Below are positions 29,001-63,199 of a stretch of 64,000 bases of DNA, piece after piece. The stretch is from Podarcis gaigeae (Eukaryota). Location: NCBI GenBank assembly GCA_964106915.2, contig OZ066919.1; one strand, 5' to 3'. How positions within the stretch are numbered: the stretch's first letter is position 1; the number at the start of each line of letters is the position of its first letter. A program made the translations under genes and the position numbers. The notes beneath the pieces were generated by a model. That model ran no database searches and was not told the origin of the DNA. It worked only from the letters and a program-made list of their open reading frames with translations.

Positions 29001-31649
29001 ATTGAAAGAGGAAATTAATTGTCTTTAATCTGGCATAAATCCCAAGGACTTCTATTAAGAATTCTGGACCTATTTATAATTAGCTAGGCCTCATAATATG
29101 CTGGTTTCCAGAGGTTGGGGGTATGTGCTTCTGATATGAATGATGCTACCATGTACAGATATAAGCCTTCTCTGCCTAAAGTCTTACTGGGTTGAGTGTT
29201 TCTAGACACCAGTACACCTCATAATAAATGACATAACATCACTTTGTCATAATTCATAGACACAATCATTTTGTAGCAAATCAGCCTGCTTGGAGGTGGT
29301 GATGGCAGCCATTATTTTTGTATGGATTAATGTGGGACTTTCTGCTTGTAGGCCAATTCTTTTTCCATTAAACTTCATTTGAGTGTGCTGAATGTAAGCA
29401 TGGTTGTTGGGCAAGTGTGTTGACAATAGCCTAGTTTATGTTAGATAGGGCAGAACAAGCCAGGCATTATGTGTTGTGGATTCTGTATTCTGACTGTCAC
29501 ATGGGAGGAACAGGTTAAGTCCTTGTGATTTTCAGAAAAGAATTAACCCAAACATTACAACATGGAAAAGAATGTAGTGTGTATTACAGTGCTCATTCAT
29601 CAGCCCTTACATGTAGGTGCAGAATGATAGGCAATGGTTTCTGTGTAGCAGTGCTAGTTAATAAGCAGTATTAGGAGAGACAGGAAAATGAAAATCCCTT
29701 CTTGGAAACTAGCAGTGTGCCATCATGTGATGTTGGATCAGGAAACAGGGATTTTGGGGTATCTCTGCTCTGAGTATTTAGTGAAATCCACTAGATTTTA
29801 AGGCTTTTTCTCTCCATGTGCCTAGAAAGTAAAAGTCTGCCCTATTTTTATTATCTAGAGCAGGGTGAGGAGAGCTGCAGGACTAAATTCGTAGCATTAA
29901 TGCATTTGCATGCACCTTCTCAAGGGACCAAGTGCTGCCTAATTAGAAGAGTTTTGCCTATTGCCCAGGTCAGTGACTACATAGGCTACTCAGAGGAAAT
30001 CTCCAGCACATATTCTTACATGGCTGTCCATTTTTGAGCAGCAGAATATTAGCCTGCAAAATTAATGTTGTGCAGCTGACATGATAGAACACCAATGTAA
30101 ATAATATCAGAAGTTGCACTTATTTGTGACTGTGTGAGAAGGTACAATATGATAGTGGATTTCCTTGTGCTTCAAGTATACAAAGTCCATTGTTTCACCT
30201 TATATTGACCCTCATCTTGTTTGCAAGTTGCCAGCAGGAGGTGGAAGCATTCATGCAGGGCCAGTCCAGGAGCTTTTGCTGCTTCAGAGAAAACAAAAAA
30301 TGTTTCCATCTTTCCATCTGCCATGGTTGACTCCTCCATGCTCATTTGCCACAGCTGCCTCTTACCATGCCTGCCTGCCACAGCTGTCTTCTCCACTGCC
30401 ACCTCCTCTGCAGCGTGCTGCTGCCACCACCTCTTCCTGCACAACCCTCTGTTGCTGACAAGGAGGAGGTGTCAGTGAGCAGGCCTGGAGGAGACTGTAG
30501 TGGTGGCAGATGGGCATGGTAGTAGGGAGTATTGGGTGGGTACAGAGGAGACCGGATCTGCTGGCTGAGGCAAGTGCCAGCTCTGTTTTCATGTGTTCAA
30601 TAGTCCTGAAGAGTTGTATAGGTGATGGACTGAAGATGCAGTAGTAGTCTAATTCGTTTAGTGTTGCATGCTACACTTGAATTGCTGGGCTGTGAAAAGT
30701 ATACACTTCATGCGTTGCTTTCATTATTTTGCCAGATAGAGAAGCAGACATTCAAACCCTCAAGAATCTAGAATTGATCTGAGACTGCTTTCTCTCAATA
30801 ATAATTCCAGTGCCAAAGACATATACTGACTTTAAAATCTGAGGGAGAAGCAATTATATTCTGTAAGAAAAATGAATCCCCTTAACTCTCTTATTTGACT
30901 GAATACCGCATACAGTGTCTCTGAGACTCCCACAGTGTGTTGATTGAATTTAGGGACCATTTCATCATTGAAAAGTTAAAGAGAAGCACCCTTCTGTCTG
31001 TGCCCTAAAATGAGAAATACCTGTCCTGCCGAATGGTTTGATGTTTTGTTGATGAAAACACTGGCAGCCTTTGGATGGGTGGAGGAGCATTTTTCACTTC
31101 TATGAACATCGGCATGTGCAGCATCAGCAGAAATACAGGAAATACAATTTTGAAGTGTTGTGTTGGAATTTTTGTTGATCTGCTGTATTGGGTTTGTATT
31201 GATGCACACAAAGGAGGGGAATAAATACCCTGATCCCAAGATTCTGGCATGATTCCTCTGTCAACCTGCTGCTTGTTTGAAATGTTATTTTTAATTCATG
31301 AGGTGTTTGTTTTAAAGCCCTGTCTGAAATTACTAACCACAGATTTTTACAGTGCATGTTTCAAAAAACTGGATGGTGTTTCAGTGCTGTGGATAAAGAC
31401 TGAGATCCTAGTACCTAATATTTTGGTTAACAAACTCCTCCCAGTAAACTCTGATCAGTTACATCAAGCCAATATTATAAAGCATTACTTGTTAAGATTA
31501 TTACTTTATTTATGCTTGTATCCAGATCACTGGCTTCCTATATGCATATCTCTCTGCCATGACTATGTAGCCTTTGCAAGGTGATTAATATGACCAAATA
31601 CCAGTGCCTACATTTCAGCAGGAGTCGCAAGATCATCATTACATGTTAT

Positions 31650-45973: not shown

Positions 45974-46162
45974 AGAACCAGATCCCATCTGGCTTTCCAA
46001 CCATAGACATGGGTCCACAGCTCAAAGTAGTAGAGAAGGCCCGCACTGCTACAATGCTCTGTGCTGCCAGCGGTAACCCTGACCCTGAAATATCCTGGTT
46101 CAAAGACTTTCTTCCTGTGGACACAGCCACTAGCAATGGCAGAATCAAACAGCTCCGTTCAG
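45974..46162 (+). CDS. PTPRF: PTPRF (LAR) coding exon, first half of Ig domain 2 (189 nt, phase 1-1)
   Basis: Acceptor ttgtgtttcag, donor gtaaaa. Translates (E)[62 protein letters not shown](G), the LAR-RPTP Ig2 sequence. VEKART, EISWF and ATSNG match PTPRF rather than PTPRD (VERTRT, EITWF, SNNNG). Confidence 0.95.
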
Positions 46163-48394
46163 GTAAAACAATAAAGTCTTCTCATTTCCTGACCCGACTC
46201 CACCCCAAATCTTTCTCTACAGGAAGCAACTGTGGTATTTTGTACCTAGATTGTGGGGTTCACTTTTTCACCCAACTTCTGCTACGTTTGAAACATTGTG
46301 TGATACGAAGAAAGATTTGGGTGAGAGAGTAGATTTTAATAGTTAGGATATTTGTCCTTGTTAACTGAAGAAGCAGAGCCTTTTGAACATGCTTTCTTGT
46401 GTCCCATGAGCAAATGAGATTTCTTATCCATGACCCGGTAGCATATTGGATCAGAAATATATCACTCCAATTCCAATATAGGTTCCTGCTTTCAGGATAG
46501 TAAAACACATGTCACTAGTTGTTCCACTTAGACCAACAGTCTGACAAAAGACATTTTGATTCATGAATAGTTACTCAGTTGGGCCAAAGACAGAAGCTCT
46601 TAGCCAGTTTCCAAAATGTGGAAAATCTGGATTTCTAAAATGCACAGGACATTCATGAACAGAAATCTTCCCTGCTGCAGAAATTTTCCCCATTAAATGA
46701 GAAAATTATAAGAATGAAGGTTGGGGAATGATGGGAGGTAGCCTACTCACCCAGCTGCCTCCCTCATGAATTTATGTTAACCTAATGGCAACTCTGAAGA
46801 GGGCTGCTTAAAACATTTCAGTGGCTTCATACGTTCTATAATTCTGCCTCTTTTGGTAACAGGGAAACTCTTCATATAGCCATGGTGCCAGAGCACAGTG
46901 TGGATAGGAAGTTAGGATAGTCCTTTTGAGGGAGAGAGAGAGAGATTGTGATTGGGATATCTGCCCCATTCTAATGAGCATACATGCCCATTAGCTGGCC
47001 TCTGATAACTACTTGTATGCAAAACTACTACCCCCTGCAAGCAATGTAACTCATATGTGGTAGTGGTCGTGGCTCTTAAATTGATATATATCAGATTCTG
47101 CAGAAATGAGTTTATAATTAGCTCCTTGCTGACACCTGTGAGACCTCAGTCTTGCAGTAGGCTCCCCCGCATATAGAGCAGTGAGCACTAATTACACTGA
47201 TAAATTTACAGTTTATATAATTTCACAGTGACCTTTAGCGTAATCTCAATATGTTTGTGCTGAAAGAAAATATCACCCTCGTTAATTTAACTTGAAAGGC
47301 ACTAAGCAGGCAGCATTAGGGAAGTGCATCCATGGATACTTGCTCTTCATACTTACTAAATCAGCATCCTCATCTAGGAGGATTGCAGATGAGCTGGGCA
47401 ACCCTTAGGCACATGCTGGGCTCTCAACAACATTCACATCATGTGCACTCGCCTGCTGCTGAGCAAGCTTCAGGGAGGAAAAACCTGAGTTTAAAAACAA
47501 AACGTGTTCAGCACTACCGTCACGTCCAAAGTTTATTTTGTTTTTCTTCATTGTAAGCAGTGTCTCAACTGAATTTCACCAGGGATTCGGAGTCCCCAGT
47601 TGTAGAAGACATTTGAATTTCCGGGAGGAGGGTAGAAATCAATGAGTAGCATATCTGCAGGCCTGAGAGAAAATTGATTAAGCTGTATGGAAGTAAATGA
47701 GGTTTATAGACTTGCATATAGTGAGCTCAAAAAAGAGGTTTAAGGTCTTTATTGGTAGGAACATTGGAAGAGCTCACAAAGCAACATTAGTATATGCCGC
47801 TGATCCAAATTGCCTCTACTCAATGAAGCTTCCTTTCCAGCAAGTGTGTAGAGGACTATTGTAACAAAGTATTTCATTTTCATAATCAAAAGAGGGAACT
47901 TTATAAGTCTGCAGTTCATAGGGTTCTGAAACTGCATAGAACAGATAATGACCCAGTTCACATGTAGCACTAAGCCAAACAGAAGCTTAGCATGGAGGAG
48001 TCAAATCTCAAACTTATGTACAGATGTAATGCCAAGCTAAATCGTGGTTAATGCCTGGGCCATTTAGCAGCACCAGGGGAGGAATGCTGCATCGCAGTCT
48101 TCATTCTGGGAACCTGCATGTTTGCTTTCTCATGCCAAGTTATGGTTTGGCTTTGCACGGCATGTGAACTTGGCCGTTCTATTGGTCAGCTGCTGAAGAC
48201 TTGGGCCCTTCCAAACACTCTCTATTTCTGTGTAATATTTTCCCAGTATTCAGACTGCAGTATATCTCTGAACAAATGCAGCTGTTTTCCCACCAGAATC
48301 TATGATGTACTGTGCCATGTCGAATGGGATTGTCTGAGTGTCATGACCACCAGTTGGATAGGCCCTGTGACACCACTGGTCTGAGAAGCTGAGG

Positions 48395-49690
48395 CAAATA
48401 GTGTTGAAAGGAGTTGGATTTCTAGGCCCTATTGACGAATTAAAAAATGACAAGTCCCTGGGTCTGGGTGGCATCCACATGAGAGTTCTTAAATAATTCA
48501 AAATATCTCACTTCTCCCTAAGATTAGACTGCATATCTGAGAAATTGAAAGCGGCCAATGTAACACCAATTTTTAAACAGCGATTGGGGCGGGAGGAGAA
48601 ATCCAGGAAGTTAAAAGCCCAGTAGTTTGTTCTGGGAAAGCATTCTTAAAAAATAGAATTAGCAAGCATATTGAAGAGCAAGTATTGCTGAAGAACCACC
48701 ACCATAGCTTTTCCAAGAGTAAGTCCTGTCTCGGTGTCTCAATAACCTTTTAGCATGTAAATAGAGGTGATCCAGTAGACATTGTGTACTCCAGCTTTCA
48801 AAAAGCCTTTGACAGAGTACCAGACCAAAGACTCCCGAGTAAGCTCAGCAGGCATGGAATAAGAGCAAAGGTCTCTTATGGATCAGGAACTGTTTCAGAA
48901 ACAGGGAACAGAAAGTTAGAATGGAGATCCCTTTCAATGGAGGAATGTTGGAAGTAGAATTTCTCAAGGATTCGTGTTGGGGCCTTCTCCCTTTGACTTG
49001 CACAGAGTTAAGAGGGTGAGTTGTGAGGTGGCAAAGTTTGTTAATGATACCAAATCGTTCAGTGTGTTTAAAACAAAAAAAGGATCGTAAGGTGCTCCAG
49101 AAGGATCTCTCCAAATTGGGTGAGTGTGCATAAAATGGCAAATAGAATTCAATGTAAGGAAGTGTTAAGTGATGCACACTGAGGCAAAAAAAAATCGTGA
49201 ATTGGTGGTGACTCACTAGAAATGAGATTTTGGGGTCACAGCGGATAACTTGATGAAGCTGTTGACCCAGTGAGCAGCAACTGTGAAAAGTGCAGATTCC
49301 ATGCTAGGGATCATTAGGAAAGGAATTTAAAATAGAACTGCTGATATCATAATGCTGTTATACAAATCTATGGTGCAACTGCATTTGGAATACTGTGTAC
49401 ACTTGTGGTTGACTCTCCTCAAAAAGGATATTGTGGAGTTCAAAAAGGTTCAGAAAGGGAAAGCCAAAATGATCAAGAGGTTTCAGCAACTCCCCCGTGA
49501 GAAGTTTACAATACAAATTGAGTGACAGGGACATGGTAGAGGTGTGTAAGATTATTCATAGTGTGGAGAAATTGGATAGGGAGACATTCTTCTCCCACTT
49601 TCATAATAATTTGGGCCCATCCAATGAAGCTAAATGTTGGAAGATTCAGGACAGACATATAAAAGAAAGTACTTCTTCACACAGGTATAT
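48395..49690 (+). mobile_element. Degenerate CR1 LINE ORF2 (RT) fragment
   Basis: KS.G..GIH.RVL, ANVTPIFK, VDIVY..FQKAFDRVP, KF..DTK, LYKSMV..HLEYCV and 'aagtacttcttcacac' motifs with many frameshifts. The CR1 tail appears to resume at about 50145-50390. Confidence 0.88.
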
Positions 49691-52600
49691 AATCAGCTGA
49701 AATAAAATTAACTAATTTATTATTAACTATGGCTATTTGCAGTTTAGTAGCACTGCAGAGAGCTTGCTGGGGAGACCATGCATTAAAAAGGGACTCAAAA
49801 ATAACTTAAACAAGGTTTTAATAACAAAAACTCCTTATACACTAAATACATCAACAACAAACCAGACCCAACCACCAACCCATCCCCCAGGGTAATGAGG
49901 GAGCTAGGTGCTGCTCCTTATATACTATGCCCAAATGCTGACACAGCTTAATTAACACAACCTAGTAGCACCTGCTATGTTTCACAGCTGTAAGACTGGG
50001 TCTCGTTATTTGCCTTGGCTCTGGCCCTTAAAGACATACACAACTTGTGAAGCAATAATGAACCTTCACATTTTAAAGTGACCATTCAACAATCTTATAA
50101 AAAATTTAATAAATATTTATATATATAAAAAAAACAATCTACACCACCAAAATGTAGTTGTAGTTACCACTGTGGGTGGCTTTAAAAAGAGGATTAGGAA
50201 TAAATTTATCAGTGGCTACTAGTGCCTTGATGTCTATGTACTATCTCTGCTGTCAGAGGCAGTATTGAGGTTACTGGGAATCATCAGTGGAAAGGGTGCT
50301 GTTGCTCTCAGGTCTTGCTTCTGAACTTCCAATAGGCATCTGTTTGGCCACTGTAGACAGTTTCTGAGCCAGCAGGGTTCTTCTAATGTATGCCACTTAC
50401 CCCTATAAGCATGCCTTAAAGCGACTCACAGCAAAACAGCAAAAACATATGAATACGTCACTACACTAAATAGTCCAAAACCAATTCATTACAAAATATA
50501 ACAAAATTTGAATGAACAATTCATTTCAATAAAACAAACTTTATAATGTTTATATAAGTCATTAAATCTTATCAGTTGATATTATTTATATTAAATAGGT
50601 AAGCCAAAGCCAGATATGAGAAAGCCTTCCAGTATAATCATGCATTAACAAATAATATAACCAGTGCTATGTGCAATAAATGGCAAGCATATTTTATAGA
50701 ACCTGCAGCAGATAATCTCTCACATGCCCCACTCTCATATTCTGATTAACTTTCTTACTTATGAAAAAAGAAAACAAGTATTTAAAGGTTATAGTCATAT
50801 TTCCTACATTTACTGTGGAAGAAAACTAATGCCAAGTCTAGACAGTGGCTTGCAGCTCCTCCTCGCTATTGATTGTACCGAGGCTGGACAGGGCAATTTG
50901 TGGGCTTTTCCTCCAGGTGCAACTAAAAGTGGCATCCCAAAATGAAGTAAATAGTAATAAATGTTTGATCATAAAAACTAAACTGTGCCTTTACATGATA
51001 CAATCTAAGAGAGGCAGCTGAACTTACTTGTGTAAGATTCAGGCTGTGACATTCAATCTGAGTTTGTTTAAAGATGAACAAGATTAAAAAGCAGTCAAAA
51101 TGTGTTAGGTTTTTACCTCAAGTGTTTAGGACATTGCTTTCAAAATGGAACATAGCCATAGAATGATTATGTCAGAGGCCTAGTTTCCCACTTCATCACT
51201 TGCTCCCCAAGCAAAGGAAGACAGATCTGCAACATACGAGGTTTGGCAACACAGTTCCTCTAATGCTCCTGGCTGATGAGTGATGTAAAGATTTGCTGTT
51301 GTTAATTGTTTTTCTTTCTATCACACCCCTCCTGCACTTGCTGCTCAAGGTACTATTAAATAAAATAATGTTGTAAAATAAAGTAAGGGCATATTAAACA
51401 TTGACTTATGTAGAGTGGAGGAAGGCATGGCAGTGAAGATGTAGGCTAAGGAGACGCATTTACACTTTGCTGAAAAATTTGTGTAAAAATGAGAGGAAGT
51501 ACACAAGCCAAAGCTGAAATGGGAGGCGAGATTGCATCATTGGCAAGGTTATGATTAAAAGATACTCCTACAGTACCAGATCAAGAAAGTGGCCAGCAAA
51601 GTTGCTCTTGCTGCTTGGGCCAGGCATTAATAGAAAATGTGGCTGGTCATAAATTAAAAGTAGGAATGAAATGGATTTAGTGTGGGCATAGTCATTCATT
51701 CATTAAATGTATTTATGCGACTGCCATTCTGCCAAGGCACCCAAAATGGTTTATAATTTTGAAATACTAAAGCAACCAAATACTACAAAATTTTGAACAA
51801 CAGAATTCTCTCAGTAAAGCCAACCCTGGGAATGTTACTAGGAGGCATTGTAGGATGGAAGGCATTTTATACACATTGGTGGGATCTGCATTACTTAACA
51901 CCCAGAGCATCCAGTATAAGGAACAGCAAAAATGTGGAAAGGTTTTAGAATTAGGGTGGCTTGGGCTGCAGTCCTAACTAACTTTCCTGGAAGAAAGCCC
52001 CATTGACTCTAGTCAGACTTACTTTTGAGTAGACATGGTTAGGATTGAGCTTTTACTCAGAGTAGCACTCGCATACCAACATTCTTTTCAAATATTATTG
52101 GCCTAGTTACCTCATTGGGAAAGTCAGATCCTCAGGTCTGCTATATCTGTAGTTCTGCATTCAAGGCTATGCAAAGTGCCATATACCTCAAATTGGTTTG
52201 GATTTGGTTTAAATGGTCATTCAGACCTGAATGTTTCTAATGTAGATTATCAACGATATGGACAAGCCTTTTGGTCACATTCAAAACTCCTTTGTGCTAG
52301 AAAGTGAGCAAATGAAGATCATAGACTCATAGAGTTGGAAGAGACCACAAGGGCCAGATGTCATTCCTTAACTATAATTTCCTATTTTCATCCAAACCAG
52401 GAAATTTTGGTTAACATCTTCAGAACAAACCAAGATATTAAACAGTTTTTCAAAGTTTAATTAACTGGTAACCATGGTTTCCTAGTTCAGATGAAATGGG
52501 AAACTATCGTTAATGGAAGACATCGTGGTTTGTTTTGCTTGAAGTGAGGAATGAAAGGACTGTATGCACAGCCAAATTCCTGCTCTTGTCTCTGCTTACT

Positions 52601-54543
52601 AAGACAGAAGTTTATTGTGGAATTGCTGCTGAACCATGCATTTTTTTCTTGCAGTCTCCACATGAAGTTGTTGTCACCAAAATGCCAAGCAATATATGTA
52701 TATATTTTAAATTTAATTTCCATACCCCTTACTGCGAAAAATAGATAAATAAAAATAACTTGTTATAAACCTAAAGTCACTGCGGGAGTGGAAGCCAGTT
52801 AGTGCATTAGCACTTTTTTGTGTGGTGATGGTAGCAGTTTGTCACATGTGGTGACATTTCAGTGGGTGGCCCCTAATGCGACAGTCTGCACACAGTTACA
52901 GAAATACCTGCATACATGCACAGAGCAGAAGGCAATGGAGGGGGGTGGTGGAGTGTTGGACAGGAGGGACAACAAAACCATCTTCATATACACTCTGTTG
53001 AGGTCCTCTAATGTGGACAGCAACTGCAGAATAGCAATGATATCCACGACTGGGAGAGAGGTGGGGAACAGAAATATGTGGAAGCTAACATGCCAAATGT
53101 ACACACTGAAATATCTGATCTGAGCATTATGTTTGCAATATAAGCCCCATCCTGGAAGCACCCTAAGGCAGCACAATAATAAGTGTCATTAATTATTTAG
53201 GTTGGGCAGATGTCTTATAAGAACACTGGAAGCTGCATGCAGAGTCAGTCCATTGGTGCATCCAGCTGAATATAGTCTAAAATGACTATTAGTTGGTCTC
53301 CAGGTTTCAAGCAGGAGTCTGGAGATGCCAAGAATTGGATAAACCGGCAGCTTCTGCATTCTTGTTCATGCTGAAAACGTACTCCATTAGAATTAAAACT
53401 TAGGATGTTGTCCAAATTTTTATTTTGTAGCATATGACTTGCATCTTCATTTGGTGATCCTGACCACTATCATGGGAGTTCTGAATAATTTTTATTTTAT
53501 GTCTTTTATTGCCATATTCTCTAACATATATTAGTGCATACTAAACCTCCAAAGAGATCTTGTTTCATTGCTTCAGAGCCACTATACAGCTCTGGCAAGG
53601 GCTATCTTACACTAAGATCTGGAGACTGGGTTTTAATAACATACCAGCTAAACTTTAGGGAATCTATTTTGAGTGTGTGTTGGGATTCCATACAGAATTT
53701 TCAGTGACTAGGTGGATACAGAACAGCTCCAGATGATCTGTTTGGCAGCAACATAAAACAGAAGCTGCTTCAGTTAGCCAGGAATCATTTCTGGACTCTG
53801 TTGTAAGAGATGCTTCTTGTCTCTTAGAGTGGGGGAAGGGGATGTAGACTCTTTATTTACAGTGATAATTTGGAGATGGTTCGGGGGCAAGTAAGCACTC
53901 AGCAAATTTTTCTTTGGGGCATGAACCAATAACCCTCTTCTTCCTGTCAGTACAGCTTGTGAGCCATACAAGCTTCCGTGATGAGAATGGTTCTGTTAAG
54001 GGGGATGGAATGGTAGAAAAGCAGATAAATAGGCAGCAGATTTATTATGGTAGAGATTACCCGCAACTTCAGCAAACGGCATTAGCCTTCCTGATGCTTC
54101 ACTCATCTGTGGACAAAAGCATCAGCAAGTATAAACCAGCCATAAAGCGAAAATGGAGTAATGTCATCTCGGCTGTGGAGAATGCTAAACGAAGCAGCTG
54201 GAACTGCTTCCTCTGATTAAAAGCTAGGGCTACTGCCTGAAGGAACATACACTAGGAGAGTGGGAGGGAAAGCGATAACAAGTGTAAATATTTTAATTAC
54301 TCTTTAAGAGGCAAGTTAAACATGCTTAAAATCTGCCTTCTTTGTATTTACAGAAATCTTTGAGTGTCTTTCTTTGTTTCCCATTGGGTGATCAGTGCTG
54401 TGGATAATGGAATGTGGGGAGCGGTTAATCTCAGATACACAGCACTCATATGCTTACTGGTATTTATTGATCAATACACGGAACATGATTTGACGCTCTG
54501 TGTCCTGTTTAACCCTCTCTTTCTATCTGTTTAAACTCCCCAG

Positions 54544-54552
54544 TTTTCTTTG
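54544..54552 (+). CDS. PTPRF: Candidate 9-nt PTPRF microexon (V-F-F), positional equivalent of the 3-aa meA segment of PTPRD
   Basis: ctctctttctatctgtttaaactccccag|TTTTCTTTG|gtaagt: long pyrimidine tract, consensus donor, frame-preserving, ends in G (phase 1), about 1 kb upstream of the 18-nt meA. TGCATG at 54628-54633. Confidence 0.6.
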
Positions 54553-55565
54553 GTAAGTGCTTGGTGTTCAGATGTGCAAAATCTGCATCAAACCAACACA
54601 TACCATGAACTGCCTACAAATTAGATCTGCATGAATCTCCCTCACCTTACTAACAGCCTTCATTTGCACAAATTAAGACCAAGGGGACAAAACTGGGGAT
54701 CAGTTTCTGTCAGTTTACATACACGGGTCTCCCTCTGCACATCTGGACCATGCTAACAATAAAGCCCATGACTGAGCAAACGGCACTTTTGCTTGAAGTT
54801 TTGGAGCAGTTAACTTTGTAACCAAGCCTTCCTTATAAGATGCACTCATAGCATGTGAACTTATTTTCTGCTCCCTTATAAGGAGGGTTGGAATCCCTTT
54901 CCTCTGCCTACTGTATAAATTATGCAGAGCGAGTCTGGTGCTCCATTGGTCCAAATAAAAACTAGAAGAAAGTGCTTTAGATTTTTATTTGAAAAATCTG
55001 TTGTGTAGAATACCAATTTCTGGCCAGGGGGAACCTGGTGTAGGTTTTATTAAAGTTACCCCTGAATTCATCACTCAGTTTTTAAGTTTCAATTACATAA
55101 TCAGATTTTGTCCCCAACGGTCAATGTAATCTTAAACCAAGAATGTGTGTCTCACCAACACCATATGCTTAATTTTTCTCCCCACACACACTCTCTCACA
55201 ACACTCACTCTGGTACTCCCACAGCCCCACCTTCTGGCAGAATAAAAGGGCGCAGCACCCATATCCCAGTGGCTTCTCCATCTCAGTTGTGACAATGAAT
55301 GCTAGTGGTTTTGCTTAGGAGTCAGAGCCCTCCTTTGTGTAGGACCAGCAATATATTAATTGGGTAAAATGGGGCCAGACTCTGTGTTCTTGGTAGCAGA
55401 GAGCTTTACTAACCACCTGAGGGCATCACTCTGACTTGTTACTGCACATCCTTTATTTATTTATTTATTTTATTTATTTTTGTTTGTTCCTGTTGCGCTA
55501 ATACAGATTCTAGCTTTGAAAAACTTTCTACTTTTTTAGTTATAATTTTCTTCCTTTCCTCTTTG

Positions 55566-55613
55566 TACTAACGCTTCTCTCTAATCTTATTTGCATTCAA
55601 ATTACCTCACCAG
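55566..55613 (+). promoter_or_regulatory. Branch point, polypyrimidine tract and UGC (SRRM3/4-type) element of the meA 3' splice site
   Basis: TACTAAC 55566-55572, second CTAAT at about 55581, TGC 55592-55594, acceptor CAG 55611-55613. Confidence 0.75.
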
Positions 55614-55631
55614 GTGGTACACCAATCAGAG
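55614..55631 (+). CDS. PTPRF: PTPRF alternative microexon meA (18 nt, GGTPIR)
   Basis: cag|GTGGTACACCAATCAGAG|gtaaga, phase 1-1, encoding G-G-T-P-I-R (known LAR-RPTP mini-exon A peptide: GGSPIR in human LAR, GGTPIR in PTPRD). Perfect TACTAAC branch point at 55566-55572, no AG from 55540 to 55611, TGC about 20 nt upstream of the acceptor. Confidence 0.93.
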
Positions 55632-56230: not shown

Positions 56231-59200
56231 TTGCTGGCCCTTCTCTGATATGAAGGTGAAGGGAGGAGATCTAAGATGCCAGCTCCACCCCTTCTGAAGC
56301 CTGACAAGAATTCATGGTGCACTGTAGCATAAAGATTTGTTGTGAGTAAATGAATCAGACACACATCTGGCTGCATTAAGTCTTCAGTTGTTCAATCCAC
56401 CTCCAGTCTGACAGCTCTGCATTCCCAGACCTTGCTAGTTTCACTGCCTATATGTGCTAGTAACATTTCTAGCCTATACACTCAAAGTAGTCCCTTGAAT
56501 TAATTTTAAGGTTGTAATCAGTACTATATAGTATGACTCTGATCTCTTGTGATTTCAGTTACTGCTGTTGACTGACCCCTGCATTTCCTGATAAACTTTT
56601 TAGCACCACTAAATTACACTATCTCATTTGTCCAATGCTCCCCTTCTTTCCTCCCCCTTCTCTCTCCACTGAATCACTGCTGGAAGTTAATAATCCAAGT
56701 CTTTGGAACTGATTCTGTTGCTGGGAGTTAATGTTTTCAGTTCTTGTTAAGTGATTTTGGAGCAAATGGGGGTTGCTGTTTCAAGTGTATTTGCATCAAG
56801 TTGCTTCTGTGAAAAATCTGGGTCAGGGGAAAAACTGTAAACCTCATTTTGATATGAATGGGTTTCTCTGTCATCTTCTCTTTGGAATGCTGCAAGATTG
56901 ACAGCTGTGATGCCACACATTTTTAAAACCTTTTCTCTGCTTCTATCACAACTCTGAAAGCAAAATGACAGACTGAATGCTAAGTAACCAAACAGGCCCT
57001 ATCGTTGCCCATATCAGGTTGGGCCTTTCCCAGCACACAACTGCTATGTATTTCCTCTGTATCAACAAGCGAGGGCATTAATGACTCAGCACCAGAACCG
57101 TCTGGATGTTCCGTACATCCTTTTTGAGGAAAGTGGACATATCTTTATAATGAGAATCATCCATCTCATAAAACATAAATCTCCCTATCTGAGTCCTAAT
57201 GAGGTATTTTAAGAATGTGTCTGACATTATTTAAAATGTATGTGTCCCGTTTGAATGTCAAAGATGACATTTCTGTACGTGCCAAAAAGCCACCTCTTAG
57301 CATCTCATACAGGATTTGTGTCAGACTTACACCTTTTGTTAAACACACAGGCTATTGAGTCTCTAAAGATTACCAGATGTGGTAGGTGAAAGGGAGGTTA
57401 TACTCACATAGTGGTCTGTACTGTGGTTCTCACTAAGGTAAGTTTGTTGCACTTCTGGGATCAATTTGATGTGGAAATAAAATTAAATTATTTTTTTGTT
57501 TGCACAGCTAGTTGGATGTAAAATTTTTGGTTCATGTTGAGAGGTGGATTCTATGTGAATGCATTGAAGGGCCAATCATACTTTCTGCCTATTGAATGGA
57601 AGTGTTATGGAAGTCAGGCCGGAGAAGCAGGATAAAATTTTATTTCTGAAACTAACCTTTCCTTTGGGCCCTGCAGCCGCAGTTCTACTCTTGCTGTCCA
57701 GAGGTGCTGTCATTTTTCTAACTGAGAGCTCTGTGTTCACAAGGCATGTTGTCACTTTTAACATTCCCCCTTTGCCTTTCAGGTGAGACCCAGGCTGAAA
57801 GGTCAGGGTGAGTTTTGATAGACTGTTCAGAGATGCATGGGTCTAGTTGGTGACTGGCAGGTTAGACAAGAGGATGGATGATTGGATGTGTATTTTGAAG
57901 GATGGCTAGTAAGCAAAAATAAAAGCTGCTTTAGGGGAAGTGACTTGACACATGTCCCCTTTCTCAAAGTTCAAATCAAGTTTTCTATGTTGTTATAGAA
58001 TGCAATTAAATATTATGAGAAATATTTCTCCTGGAAGCAGAAAATGCTGGCATGTCATGGACCTCTGATGCTTCAGATTTTGCCATTGCAGGCACATGAG
58101 AAGCAGTGGAAGTGTTAAAGGGAAGACAGCATTTTAAATGGTCCTTTTCTTCACAAAATAAATTGGAATCAATTGGAAAGCGTTCGTACCCGTTGACTGG
58201 ATAGACTTTCCTCCAGTGTGAGTTTCACCACTGCAAAGCAGAAGGACAATTACTTTGAAACAGAAAGATCTGATAATTGGCAGAGAAGGGCTGAGAAACT
58301 TTTTATCTAATACTTTTATTATTGCCCAAATTTCACGCTGTTTTGCCCTTAGCACCCTCTTTGGCAGTCTTGTAGTGCTGCTTCTCTTGGGATCTGCATA
58401 TATCAATCTCTCTTTTTCTGTATCTGGAGTACAAGAGGAAAGTGCATGAATGCCAGATGCATGATACACAAAAGGAAGGGGAATCAGTGATTGAGCTGTA
58501 TTCCTGCATTTGCCCTTGTGTGCCGCTCAGTTTCATAGCTCTCCGTCAGTGACTGCCTCACTTGTATATATCACAGAAACCCAGCTTCATTCCAGGTCCC
58601 AGCCATGCCAATCATCATGCTCAGGAAGAAGAGGCACAGCTGAACAGGAACATAATGAGCATCAGTAATAACATCACTGTGGTAGTTTTGTTTTTATTTA
58701 TTTAGCTTATTTGGCCGTAAAAAATAAATAAATTTGAGATGGGGGCATTTGGCTGCCATTCCAGGTAGCACCTAGGATTATTAGAGCTGAAAATCTAAGC
58801 GGCATGTTAAGTAGAGTATTGATATATAAATCATGATCCAGAAAATTTTGTGCACCATTTTACTCTACTGACAACTGCAGAGCTGCAAGAATCCAGTGTG
58901 AGATTGTGAAAGTAGACTTTTGCCTTCCTCGTCAAATCCTCAAATTTATATAAACATAAATTTAACTGAACACAAGTGAAGCTTCTGAGTAAACATTCAT
59001 AGGATTGCTCTGTTAATGAGACAGTCAACATTTTTCATTAACTTTGCTGGCAAAGCAAGGCAGATCCTGCCAAAACCAGAACACTTCTATGTTCCATAGA
59101 TTAGACCTACCTGCAGAAATGTAAGGTGAGAAGGTATCTGTGGATTTATTTATTTTAGCCATCTCTGCCCATGCTTATCAAGCCCACCAACCCCCACTAC

Positions 59201-59559
59201 CTATTTTCACTTGCAATTACAAGTCAGTAGAGAGTAGCCTTCCCCAATTCCCATCAGCCCCAGCAAGCATAGCCAATGGTGAGGAATGATGAGAATTCTA
59301 GTACAAAACATTTTGGGGTTGGGGAAGGCGATATAAAGCATATGCATGTGCCTCACAAGTAGAGAGGAGCAATGTAAGGAAATGCACATAAATAATGTTT
59401 GGAAATATCCAGGGTCAAGGAACAGGAGGCTAGGAGTTTGAATCCCCTTTCTTGGAGGTTCCCTCTGCCTCCTGTCAGTCATGAAGCAGGTCATCATTGC
59501 TTGCTGTTACTATATTTAAAACTTGCTTTTGTTATATTTGAAAGCAGTGATGGACTGGA

Positions 59560-60295
59560 TGTGGGCCAACAAATTAAAAATGAATCCTGAAAATCCAGGA
59601 GCTGGGAGGGCAGCCTCTTCTGAGCAGGGTTGCAATCCCCTGGAAGAAGCAGGTTCATAGCTTGAGGGTGTTGTCCAGCATTGTCACTTGAGGTGGCTAA
59701 TTTCCTGCTATGGCTTGGTTTGCCAGCTACAACCCCTTGTGGACAGAGGTGACTTCGTCACAGTCCTGCATGCTCTGGTAACTTCCATATTGGACTACTC
59801 TTCATGAAGATGACTTGGAAACTTCAACTGGTTCAAAATTCAATGGTCAGATCGCTTGCTGGGTTTGCCTTTAGCACTTATGCAACTCATGTTCTAAAAC
59901 AGCTATATTTTCCTGCCAATTCAAGGTGCTCATGCTAGTTTTTAAAGCTCTAAATTATTTAAGCCCCAAATATCTGAGACACTGCTGCCTTCTCTACAGA
60001 CCCTCTCAGATATTAAGATCAGCACCCTTTGGGTGGCTCTGCCGCCCTCAGAAATTCAAGGTGATGGCTCAGGAGAGGACATTCTTTGTAGCAGCTTATG
60101 AATAGTGGCACCTTTGCTATATAGCCTTTGTCAGTTGCTGAAGACACACCTTTTTATCCTGGTGTTTTTGGTGTTTTCAGATGTGTGTTTTCAGGACCCA
60201 CCTGAAATTAGTTTTAACTGTTTTTAATACTGAATTTAAATCATAGTAACCAGCCCTGGCACCTGCTGATGAAGGGTGGGTAATAAATTTAACAA
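59560..60295 (+). mobile_element. Degenerate L2 LINE 3' fragment
   Basis: 'catgctctggtaacttcc..attggactac' (HALVTS.LDY), 'ggaaacttcaactggttcaaaat' (KLQLVQN), 'tttaaagctctaaat' (FKALN) and a 'gaagggtgggtaataaat' tail. Confidence 0.8.
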
Positions 60296-61769
60296 CAGCA
60301 GCAACGTAGCAGCAGCAGTAATAGTATTGGTAGTAGTAGATGTTTTCCTGGTCTGGGTTACAAAACATTAAAAACAAACCTGACAATGCTGCTGCTGCTG
60401 TATAAAGAACAGTCAACTTATTAGTATTATATGTGAAAGCACCTTAAGAGTGGCAGAAGGAAGGCTTTTCTGGCTGGCGTCCCCTGCACTGCCCCCTGCC
60501 AGCCCCAGCGTAGCAATAGGAAGGGCTCCCTACATCATTTTTATTACATAGCAAAGCTCAGTGAGGTTCATTTTTTCTCTCCCTGACATATAGACTTAGG
60601 CTACAGTCTCAATTTATCCTTCTAAATAATGTAGGTGGCGGCAGTTGATTCACATTAGTTTTCCTTCTGTTGCAATGATATGAAAACTGAATTTGACCTC
60701 CGTTCCTTGAAGTGGGAAGAGCGGAGACAGCAATTTTGGCTTCTGTTCACAGTGCTGTTTTCTCTGGCAAATGGAAATGGGTTCAGACTCTGACAAGCAG
60801 ACAGGTTAATGTTTTTTCTCTTGGTTCAGGTGTGTATGTGTTTCTGAGCAAATGCCCTCTTCTGCCATCTCTGGAATCTCAACTTCTGGAAGAACCAAGA
60901 AAGTCTTTGCTACTCAGGAAGTATGGAGGTTCTGATCTGGCAATGTGACATCAAGGCTACTTCTACATTCACCCTTTGCTTATTTTCCCCTTCACCATTG
61001 TCATCCTTACTTCCTCCACAAACTAGATGCAGCCCATTTTAAATGATTTCCAGAGGAAACAACTGGACAGGGTTCAGCACTCATCTATGATGGACGAGAT
61101 AAGCAACAAGAATGCAATTCAAGCCGTATTTGTCCCTAATGTGGGTTGGGCTGATTTCAGGTTTAAATTGGATTTAACACAAGTTGTACCATTTTCTGAT
61201 GCTGACTTATTAATTGTATTGATGGTTGTATTGAGGTCTTTATCATAAATGAAAGGAGTAGTCTTCAGAAGCAGAGATGCAAAGGACTTCTCAGGGTACA
61301 ATCTTGTAATCCTTTTGGTTTGTAGGTTTCTAAGGTTCTGTTATTTGTACTTTATGGGGAAGTGAAGGTTTAATTTTAGAGAATTGAATTGATAATTAAA
61401 GGAAAGAGAGTAGTGCACCAAGATGCAAATTGGTTGTGTGAAGATGGTATTTGTTGTGATATTTCAACGAATAAACCTGAATTCTTTTGAAAGTTTCTGT
61501 GCTTGGTAGAAATGGATGTATTCCGTAAGAAGTGAATTGAAAAGGTGTCAGTAACTGTTTGCCTGTGCAGCTATAAAAACTGGACACAGCAGGTGCTTTT
61601 TAGCAACAACCAAGTGGAAGTGGTGTTTGGTGGACCCTCTGAGAAGTGCCATGCCACACATTTACCAGAAACCCTTTGTGTCCTAAGTTAGGGACACAGA
61701 GCAAAAATTTACATGTTTTGTAAATATATTATTGTAACCAATATTGTCTGTGTTCTATTTTCCACATAG

Positions 61770-61880
61770 GAGCTCTACAGATTGAGAACAGTGAAGAGTC
61801 AGACCAAGGCAAATATGAATGTGTCGCCACGAACAGTGCTGGGACCCGTTACTCTGCTCCAGCCAACCTTTATGTGCGAG
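61770..61880 (+). CDS. PTPRF: PTPRF coding exon, second half of Ig domain 2 (111 nt, phase 1-1)
   Basis: Acceptor tttccacatag, donor gtaaag. Translates (G)[36 protein letters not shown], in frame with 45974-46162. Not in the ORF track because it is short. Confidence 0.95.
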
Positions 61881-63199
61881 GTAAAGTTGGAGAAGGCAAA
61901 CTTCCATCCCTTTCTACCTTCTCTTCCGTGTCTACACCTTCTCTAATGACCCATGAGACGTTGCAGCGAGAGGTTACCTTTATGATGTATTGTAAATGAT
62001 GAAACCAGTCATTGAGTTCAAGCCTTGGAAAGTCAATTCTTGCCACAATTTTTTTTCTTTATTTCATTTTTTTTTTTTTTGCCAGAGCTTCTTTAATGGT
62101 CAGACTGGTTAAACCACTGTCATAAAGGGGGCAGAAGTTCATGTTTAATTATTTGTATATTTTGTTAAACAAAAGCGTGTTGGGGGGATTTGTGAAATTA
62201 GTGGGTCTCTCTTTTTCTCACTGCCACCCTTTTTGGGGAGGGTTTATTTATTTTAATGAGATAAAGTTTTGAGCATTCATTTCATAAGCTTGACTTGTTC
62301 TCTTGCAGGTGAGTTGGTGCATCATGTTGACTCTGGAATAGCATGTTAGTTTCCATAAGCTCTCTTGGTCAACACCTTGTCAGCAACGGGGATTATTGCA
62401 GAAGCTATTAAAATAGCTTCCATTCCTGCTGAGAATCAGCTTCAGTTTGTTACATGAAGCCACTTTGCCAGACTGTTTTCTTAACTTGTTATTATTCCCA
62501 GATCTCAAAGTCTTTTCACTCACTACGTTAAATTTGATACAGAATTTTGTGTTTGGAGAGCAAAGAGTTTGGTACTTTATTAAAAGCTGATGAGTTTTCT
62601 GTTCTGTTTTACATGGGGACAATGTGTGTTCTCCTTGGCCAGACCTTGTATTAGCCAGGGATATTAATGTAAGACACCCCTTGGAGGTGTGTTTTGGTAC
62701 TTACATAACAGTGGGAAAGAAGAAGAGTGTCAGTTTGGTGCCTTTGACTGGTTGGCAGTTAAACTCATATTTTATTCCTTCTTAGGTCCTGGATCTCAAT
62801 AACTACCCATTTAGAAATACTGTTTCCATCTTCATTCCTTCCTCTGTCTTTTCTCTTTTCTCTCTTTCTCTGTCTCCCCACTTGACCGTTGCTTCCTAAT
62901 ACTCATGCACACGCCTTTTATTTGTGGGGTGGAGGGGAGCTGCCTTAACCAAGCTAAGGAAGAGTTATTCCCAGGAGAAGCCAAAATGACTTACTGTGTG
63001 ATTGCTTCTAGGTCTCTCGGTTACTCTCATTGTGTTCAGCACTCATTTTCTACAGGTGCCGTTTCATCTTGCAGAACAATTTCAACATACAAATCTGTAC
63101 GATGCTGAAATTTCAGATAGTCTCAGAACTCTTTATCTGTGCAGCAGAAATGCCCATTTCTCAAGCATAATGTGCTTATTATTGACCTTATATACCCTG

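Follow-up and report, generated by a model that had tools for sequence, protein, structure and literature searches.

A frame-gated pair of exons, conserved among lizards, follows the meA microexon of PTPRF

Does PTPRF, the gene for LAR, contain a further optional exon between the known microexon meA and the exon for the second part of the Ig2 domain, and what would an exon that breaks the reading frame do there? The question arises from a stretch of 64,000 nucleotides (nt) of Podarcis gaigeae (contig OZ066919.1, assembly GCA_964106915.2), hereafter the window, in which a first-pass annotation made from the letters alone had proposed a 25-nt microexon downstream of meA. It read this segment, here called exon A, as a candidate poison exon and recursive splice site. 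We found that exon A (57783-57807) is very likely a real exon and that the feature is larger than proposed. Together with a second, previously unnoticed exon of 92 nt, exon B, which lies 2.9 kb downstream, it forms a frame-gated exon pair that is conserved in lizards and chained to meA (Table 1).

Evidence for both exons comes from the gene models of other lizards. Among the 173 proteins examined, 96 have the skipped form, 67 carry meA as their only insert, 7 contain the peptide of exon A and 3 are of other kinds. The seven are six full-length RefSeq isoforms of Hemicordylus capensis, a cordylid, and one truncated model of Phrynosoma platyrhinos, an iguanian. In all seven models from these two species exon A is preceded by meA and joined to exon B, a proportion to be read with the fact that protein collections under-represent single-exon products ending in a premature stop. 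The peptide GETQAERS was found directly after meA in one of the best 120 of 7,988 matches to the upstream exon (Hemicordylus capensis isoform X5). Searches with the insert recovered it in five of six long-protein candidates, all Hemicordylus isoforms, and in one of seven short-protein candidates, the truncated Phrynosoma model, and isoform X1 with the insert was found by cluster look-up. The indexed sequences are cluster representatives only, so that further species may be hidden among them. The presence of the peptide directly after meA in two distant lizards bears out the proposal that the microexon is real and conserved; counting the genome studied here, the feature is seen in three lineages on both sides of the basal split of Unidentata. 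The A+B isoform is in fact already present in RefSeq as an unremarked prediction for Hemicordylus. We infer that both sets of models rest on transcripts, because both hold exons of 18 and 25 nt and because each translates the next exon in a frame of its own, so that neither can have been projected or copied from the other.

Inclusion of the two exons is likely rare or confined to few cells, because the insert left no trace in the 163 proteins of skipped or meA-only form. For Lacerta agilis, Pogona, Sceloporus, Varanus and Anolis sagrei these include the longest isoform (X1). Among the proteins searched, the peptide occurs in the two lizard species only, with no sign of the exon pair outside lizards so far. 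A 12-residue insert in a pheasant protein (P0085) proved unrelated.

Exon B was located through the Hemicordylus insert, whose last 30 residues match positions 60714-60803 at 28 of 30, the next best place in the intron reaching 8 of 30. Read-through of the exon A donor was rejected as the origin of this insert: it meets a stop at once in the present genome, and 60713-60804 accounts for the remainder of the insert. When scored with a matrix of our own, derived from 25 exon junctions of PTPRF in the present genome (one of them possibly mis-called), the acceptor of exon B ranks above 15 and its donor above 2 of the 25 PTPRF sites. The regions of exon A and exon B each match only themselves in a DNA search of their own genome, which skips common words; exon B is thus single copy, and no repeat origin of either exon was seen. 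A phmmer search with the 30 residues of exon B against 1.84 billion cluster representatives returned no match, which is uninformative for so short a query. The 40 short and imperfect inverted-repeat pairs between A and B include none that convincingly links the two exons. An AlphaFold2 model of the Hemicordylus Ig2 with its insert, made from a four-row alignment, was unusable, with a predicted local distance difference test (pLDDT) of 30.5.

The lengths of the two exons explain why they have to be considered together. When the 25 nt of exon A alone are spliced in, the frame runs into a TGA at 61783-61785, exactly as first proposed; this stop lies 95 nt before the junction at 61880, beyond the 50-55 nt expected of a poison exon, and many further junctions follow. 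Exon B alone also shifts the frame and leads to a stop in the following exon. Jointly, 25 + 92 = 117 nt are in frame and free of stops in this genome, escape the premature stop, and encode a 39-residue insert with three cysteines. Three optional exons (meA, A and B) thus stand in a row, and the frame is kept only with none or both of A and B. Hemicordylus, whose insert also has 39 residues, shares the stop-free 117-nt pair. In Phrynosoma the pair measures 119 nt and is out of frame: its peptide follows the joined frame for 21 residues and then the other frame of B, and translation enters the next exon in the wrong frame. The Phrynosoma model (P0160) also has Asp instead of Gly as the codon at the A-B junction, which implies a changed last base of A or shifted exon ends. 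The earlier interpretation of exon A as a candidate poison exon and possible switch for nonsense-mediated decay (NMD) therefore holds in part. The stop follows if A is included alone, and meA is present in all seven models with A; but because the partner B restores the frame here and in Hemicordylus, A is not simply a poison exon.

Exon A itself is well equipped for splicing. All motifs proposed around 57756-57839 were found by inspection of the sequence, from the branch-like TTTTAAC to the downstream TGCATG. The exon combines a strong acceptor with an ordinary donor (score 8.5). With 25 nt and a TGC in its pyrimidine tract it lies within the size of microexons (up to ~27-30 nt) and has their UGC near the acceptor. 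We take the UGC and TGCATG elements to be SRRM3/4 and RBFOX motifs, respectively. Shorter forms through internal sites of A (19, 14 or 6 nt) had no support in any of the 173 proteins.

Could such a cluster of motifs have arisen by chance, without function? Across 414 kb of the locus, a scan for acceptor-like sites followed by a donor G/GTRAG within 3-51 nt gave 9 among 334 in sense and 1 among 233 in antisense orientation, and the site of exon A is the only one of these, on either strand, that also has the branch-like, UGC and Fox motifs. This rarity is weak support when taken alone, because the rules were chosen after the site had been seen and do not detect the known meA exon; TGCATG alone is frequent, with 28 occurrences on the plus and 21 on the minus strand of the window. 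The introns of PTPRD and PTPRS between the corresponding exons also lack a match to the regions of A and B, with scores at the level of shuffled sequence, in a comparison for which the meA region was the positive control. A metagenome-level scan for the pattern gave 31 matches, none homologous to the flanks (best score 30). Chance is nonetheless refuted in substance, as the same peptide follows meA in two distant lizards and its divergence is far below that of third codon positions.

This divergence was measured as follows. Against Hemicordylus, the A+B peptide is identical at 37 of 39 residues (flanking exons, 59/62 and 36/36), corresponding to 2 differences in 39 codons (~78 visible sites), and against Phrynosoma there are 6 differences in 40 codons (~80 visible sites). 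A neutral yardstick is available because the Phrynosoma model reads the next constitutive exon out of frame and so makes its third positions visible: 12 of 37 differ from the present genome. The divergence of A+B from Phrynosoma is lower than this (P-value = 0.0015, Fisher test), and exon A alone shows 0 and 1 change in the two lizard comparisons (P-value = 0.002 and 0.012, binomial test). A+B is thus conserved beyond the neutral rate, as conserved poison exons are. Both differences from Hemicordylus are radical first-position changes in the joined frame (Gly/Ser and Trp/Gly), and the Hemicordylus insert contains an N-glycosylation sequon that is absent here. With the frame broken in Phrynosoma, the sequence of A+B has been kept better than its frame.

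Conservation also reaches into the intron around exon A. In contigs of two close relatives, no difference was found in 213 nt over A compared to 21 in 934 nt elsewhere in the intron (X18; P-value = 0.013, Fisher test), and 1 in 261 nt compared to 43 in 1,532 (X15; P-value = 0.008). These counts come from the 16 contig pieces listed, leaving out repeat and exon pieces (records 8, 12, 13 and 16), and the two organisms share differences, so that they are not independent. One explanation is that A and B merely lie inside intronic elements conserved for another reason, such as the regulation of meA or an enhancer, and that their splicing is noise caught by two annotations. The spread of conservation into the intron fits this idea, as do the restriction to two species among the proteins searched and the lack of A or B junctions in the RNA runs described below. 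We nevertheless consider it improbable. The same two exons, with the same ends, recur in different frames in lineages that split at the base of Unidentata, which means that neither annotation copies the other, and exon A has a strong acceptor with UGC and Fox motifs.

A different possibility is that exon A serves mainly as a recursive-splicing site: it would be defined as an exon, joined to meA or to the upstream exon, and then removed through the rebuilt donor, the A+B form being leakage. The expectation that the start of A rebuilds a donor when joined to the Ig2 exon or to meA was confirmed, as CAG/GTGAGA scores 9.6 and GAG/GTGAGA 8.6, similar to the donor of A itself and above 15 and 10 of the 25 PTPRF donors, respectively. 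By the layout of its sequence, exon A can be called a putative recursive-splicing exon (RS-exon) in the sense of the text available from PMC6224609, including the second donor, AGG/GTGAGT after 57807, and the layout also agrees with the binary-switch model as far as it is reviewed in the accessible part of PMC5126111. Several points speak against recursion as the main role. Starts with GT are common (5 of 25 PTPRF exons), the conservation of all of A, and of B, is left unexplained, and the donor letters fall on third codon positions that cannot be read from peptides. No splicing intermediate was seen in the RNA runs of relatives, which had low depth and covered 57250-61950 with the upstream exons outside. 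Cryptic recursive splice sites lie in very long introns. At 15.6 kb the present intron is not of that kind, although annotated RS-exons do not require it. We therefore hold a mainly recursive role to be doubtful.

The explanation that we favour, with a probability of about one half, is that exon A belongs to a lizard-conserved A+B cassette after meA that is rarely used and probably acts as a neuronal switch removing transcripts from the normal pool of meA-containing (meA+) LAR. By what is generally known of NMD, inclusion of A or B alone would lead to decay. Joint inclusion would place a bulky loop at the meA site and would disturb the ligand binding that depends on meA. Judging from the motifs, SRRM3/4 (through UGC) and RBFOX (through TGCATG) may drive inclusion, and A would usually be left out, possibly by recursive removal through the rebuilt donor. 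Both outcomes would lower ordinary meA+ LAR, and this would explain a sequence that was kept while the frame was lost in Phrynosoma. We prefer such a role because conservation of the sequence outlasts that of the frame and because the cordylid changes are radical and in first positions.

Several observations weigh against this explanation. The splicing evidence consists of two automatic annotations, and the read support behind them is not visible. None of four RNA runs of relatives, of low depth and unknown tissue, lists a junction of A or B (A to B, A to 61770 or B to 61770) in the stretch 57250-61950, including the 57807 to 61770 junction that the first-pass annotation had put forward as a check. 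The runs were aligned over this stretch only, which leaves the junctions of meA and the upstream exon outside; depth on the exon 61770-61880 is ~17 reads in run X23 and zero in run X21, neither of which has raw reads over exon A, and a junction needs three reads to be listed, with a 25-nt side that is hard to place. The deepest contigs enter 61770 from a partner ending in AG, hence not from exon A, and the contigs that cover A are unspliced. If the peptide were incidental, a stop-free joined frame would be expected by chance in ~5% of cases, a figure inflated by the discovery of the pair through a full-length model, which selects for an open frame. Finally, the Phrynosoma branch accounts for 4 substitutions and an indel compared to 2 substitutions on the other two branches (P-value = 0.05-0.10). 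The open frame and the excess on the Phrynosoma branch favour a coding role that was later lost in iguanians.

In this alternative, A+B would have been selected as a composite coding mini-exon that gives squamates a LAR isoform with a 39-residue cysteine-rich loop and binding properties of its own; NMD would clear half-spliced products, and the iguanian copy would have decayed or been mis-assembled. The stop-free 117 nt, the 37 of 39 residues shared by this genome and the cordylid and the six full-length RefSeq isoforms all fit a coding role. However, the frame is broken in Phrynosoma, the two cordylid differences are not what a constrained peptide favours, the Hemicordylus sequon is not shared, and a stable in-frame isoform is not among the lacertid RefSeq proteins examined. 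A coding isoform lost in iguanians comes close behind our favoured explanation, although we regard it as somewhat unlikely. More speculative still is a gate of three steps, in which lizards would have to include meA, A and B together to bring a novel form of LAR to the cell surface, its ligand-selecting site carrying a cysteine-rich loop of 45 residues, half-way products would go to NMD, and the donor rebuilt between meA and A would reset the choice by recursive removal.

How does the proposed cassette compare with known systems? The mini-exons of the LAR-RPTPs, meA (meA1/meA2) and meB, are the closest in place: exon A has microexon size and an upstream UGC, lies in the same gene, and inserts into Ig2 directly after meA. 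The known mini-exons are single, in frame, 3-9 residues long and have counterparts in PTPRD and PTPRS, whereas A and B each shift the frame, match no paralog and have so far been found in lizards only. Like conserved poison exons that couple alternative splicing to NMD, A is conserved beyond neutrality and, when included by itself, brings in a stop far ahead of subsequent junctions; the difference is that here two exons of cancelling length are involved, whose joint inclusion escapes the stop in this genome and Hemicordylus but not in Phrynosoma. Vertebrate RS-exons are reportedly the subject of work by Sibley in 2015. In the available text of PMC6224609 (Blazquez 2018), where a MaxEntScan cut-off of 5.52 is used, such exons likewise have an acceptor followed by a donor-like start, a second donor downstream and a premature stop on inclusion, whereas the intron studied here is short and A is retained in gene models together with its partner. 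Exon A resembles SRRM3/4-dependent neural microexons in its 25 nt, in the UGC ~10 nt before the AG, in its conservation and in its host, a neuronal adhesion gene with other such exons; it differs in that its length is not a multiple of three and its neural inclusion and dependence on SRRM4 are putative. Finally, A+B recalls mutually inclusive exon pairs that keep the frame only together: the two lengths cancel here and in Hemicordylus, though not in Phrynosoma, and all seven models hold both exons. It differs in that the pair interrupts an Ig domain, is itself optional and is linked to meA, another optional microexon, and its obligatory coupling is only putative.

Our literature searches turned up no description of frame-shifting exons, single or paired, that follow the meA of PTPRF; subscription journals, VastDB and further supplements may hold one. 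As far as its accessible text goes, targeted RNA sequencing of mouse brain added a single new exon to Ptprf, which lies close to the membrane and not in Ig2 (PMC10883964). The string 'Ptprf' does not occur in eight supplementary files of a mouse microexon catalogue (PMC7821500), which is uninformative. According to the accessible part of PMC12598525, which deals with PTPRD, meA and meB are regarded as a splice code that selects the synaptic partners of LAR-RPTPs. A cassette at the meA site that is conserved from a cordylid and a lacertid-type genome to an iguanian would add to this either control of the dosage of meA+ LAR or a lineage-specific binding surface. It also provides a natural test case of how two exons that each break the frame can give rise to a new protein insert, since the frame holds in two of the lineages and is broken in the other. 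Its significance is so far limited to lizards, and the present species contributes no direct read evidence.

Table 1. Features of the PTPRF intron and its flanking exons, in window coordinates
Feature	Position	Strand	Evidence
PTPRF constitutive exon, first part of Ig2, phase-1 donor	45974..46162	+	100% to lacertid PTPRF
meA microexon, 18 nt, in frame, known	55614..55631	+	identical in its 18 nt to the ptprfa microexon of zebrafish (PMC12626420, supplement file 12)
Region surrounding exon A, less divergent in two close relatives than other parts of the intron	57667..58063	+	contigs of X18 and X15
Exon A acceptor: branch-like TTTTAAC (57756-57762), pyrimidine tract with UGC, CAG (AG at 57781-57782)	57756..57782	+	outscores 21 of 25 real PTPRF acceptors
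Exon A, 25 nt, frame-shifting alone; starts with GTGAGA, a putative recursive donor once joined	57783..57807	+	peptide GETQAERS after meA in 7 lizard models (P0066, P0156-P0159, P0161, Hemicordylus; P0160, Phrynosoma)
Exon A donor GTGAGT (57808-57813) and downstream TGCATG (57834-57839), RBFOX-type motif	57808..57839	+	donor 9-mer as in a constitutive PTPRF donor; outscores 10 of the 25
Exon B, 92 nt, AAG acceptor, weak CAG/GTTAAT donor; frame-shifting alone, restores frame with A	60713..60804	+	agrees with the Hemicordylus insert at 28 of 30 residues
PTPRF constitutive exon, second part of Ig2; contains TGA 61783-61785, reached if A alone is included	61770..61880	+	

The assignment of the window to PTPRF is based on the first Ig2 exon, whose protein is 100% identical to PTPRF of Lacerta agilis, Podarcis raffonei and Salvator merianae; the paralogs PTPRD and PTPRS lie on other contigs of the same genome. 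From the first to the second Ig2 exon the intron spans 15,607 nt. The intronic sequence flanking meA can be aligned with that of PTPRD (G000:C30, ~20,962,000) over ~95 nt, with a score of 122 and a shuffled maximum of 32. PTPRS matches the meA exon itself and not its flanks, so that flank conservation between these ancient paralogs is seen for PTPRF and PTPRD. The 9-nt meA1 exon of PTPRD with its flanks had no counterpart in the PTPRF intron at 46163-55613 (score 29, shuffled maximum 30). A four-residue form of meB is present in 11 of the 173 proteins, and a simple pattern search from 61881 to 12.8 kb beyond the end of the window did not locate this exon. In the intron between Ig1 and Ig2, positions 29826-29864 show an acceptor-like site with UGC, a stop-free in-frame segment of 39 nt, a donor G/GTGAG and a downstream TGCATG; none of the 173 proteins has an insert at this position. 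Degenerate reverse-transcriptase-like frames at 48500-49700 presumably belong to an old CR1-type retroelement. High-copy repeats at 59244-59306 and ~59800-60300 cause hundreds of partly fitting reads and contigs to pile up, and a 21-nt pseudo-exon scored at 59258 falls inside the first of them.
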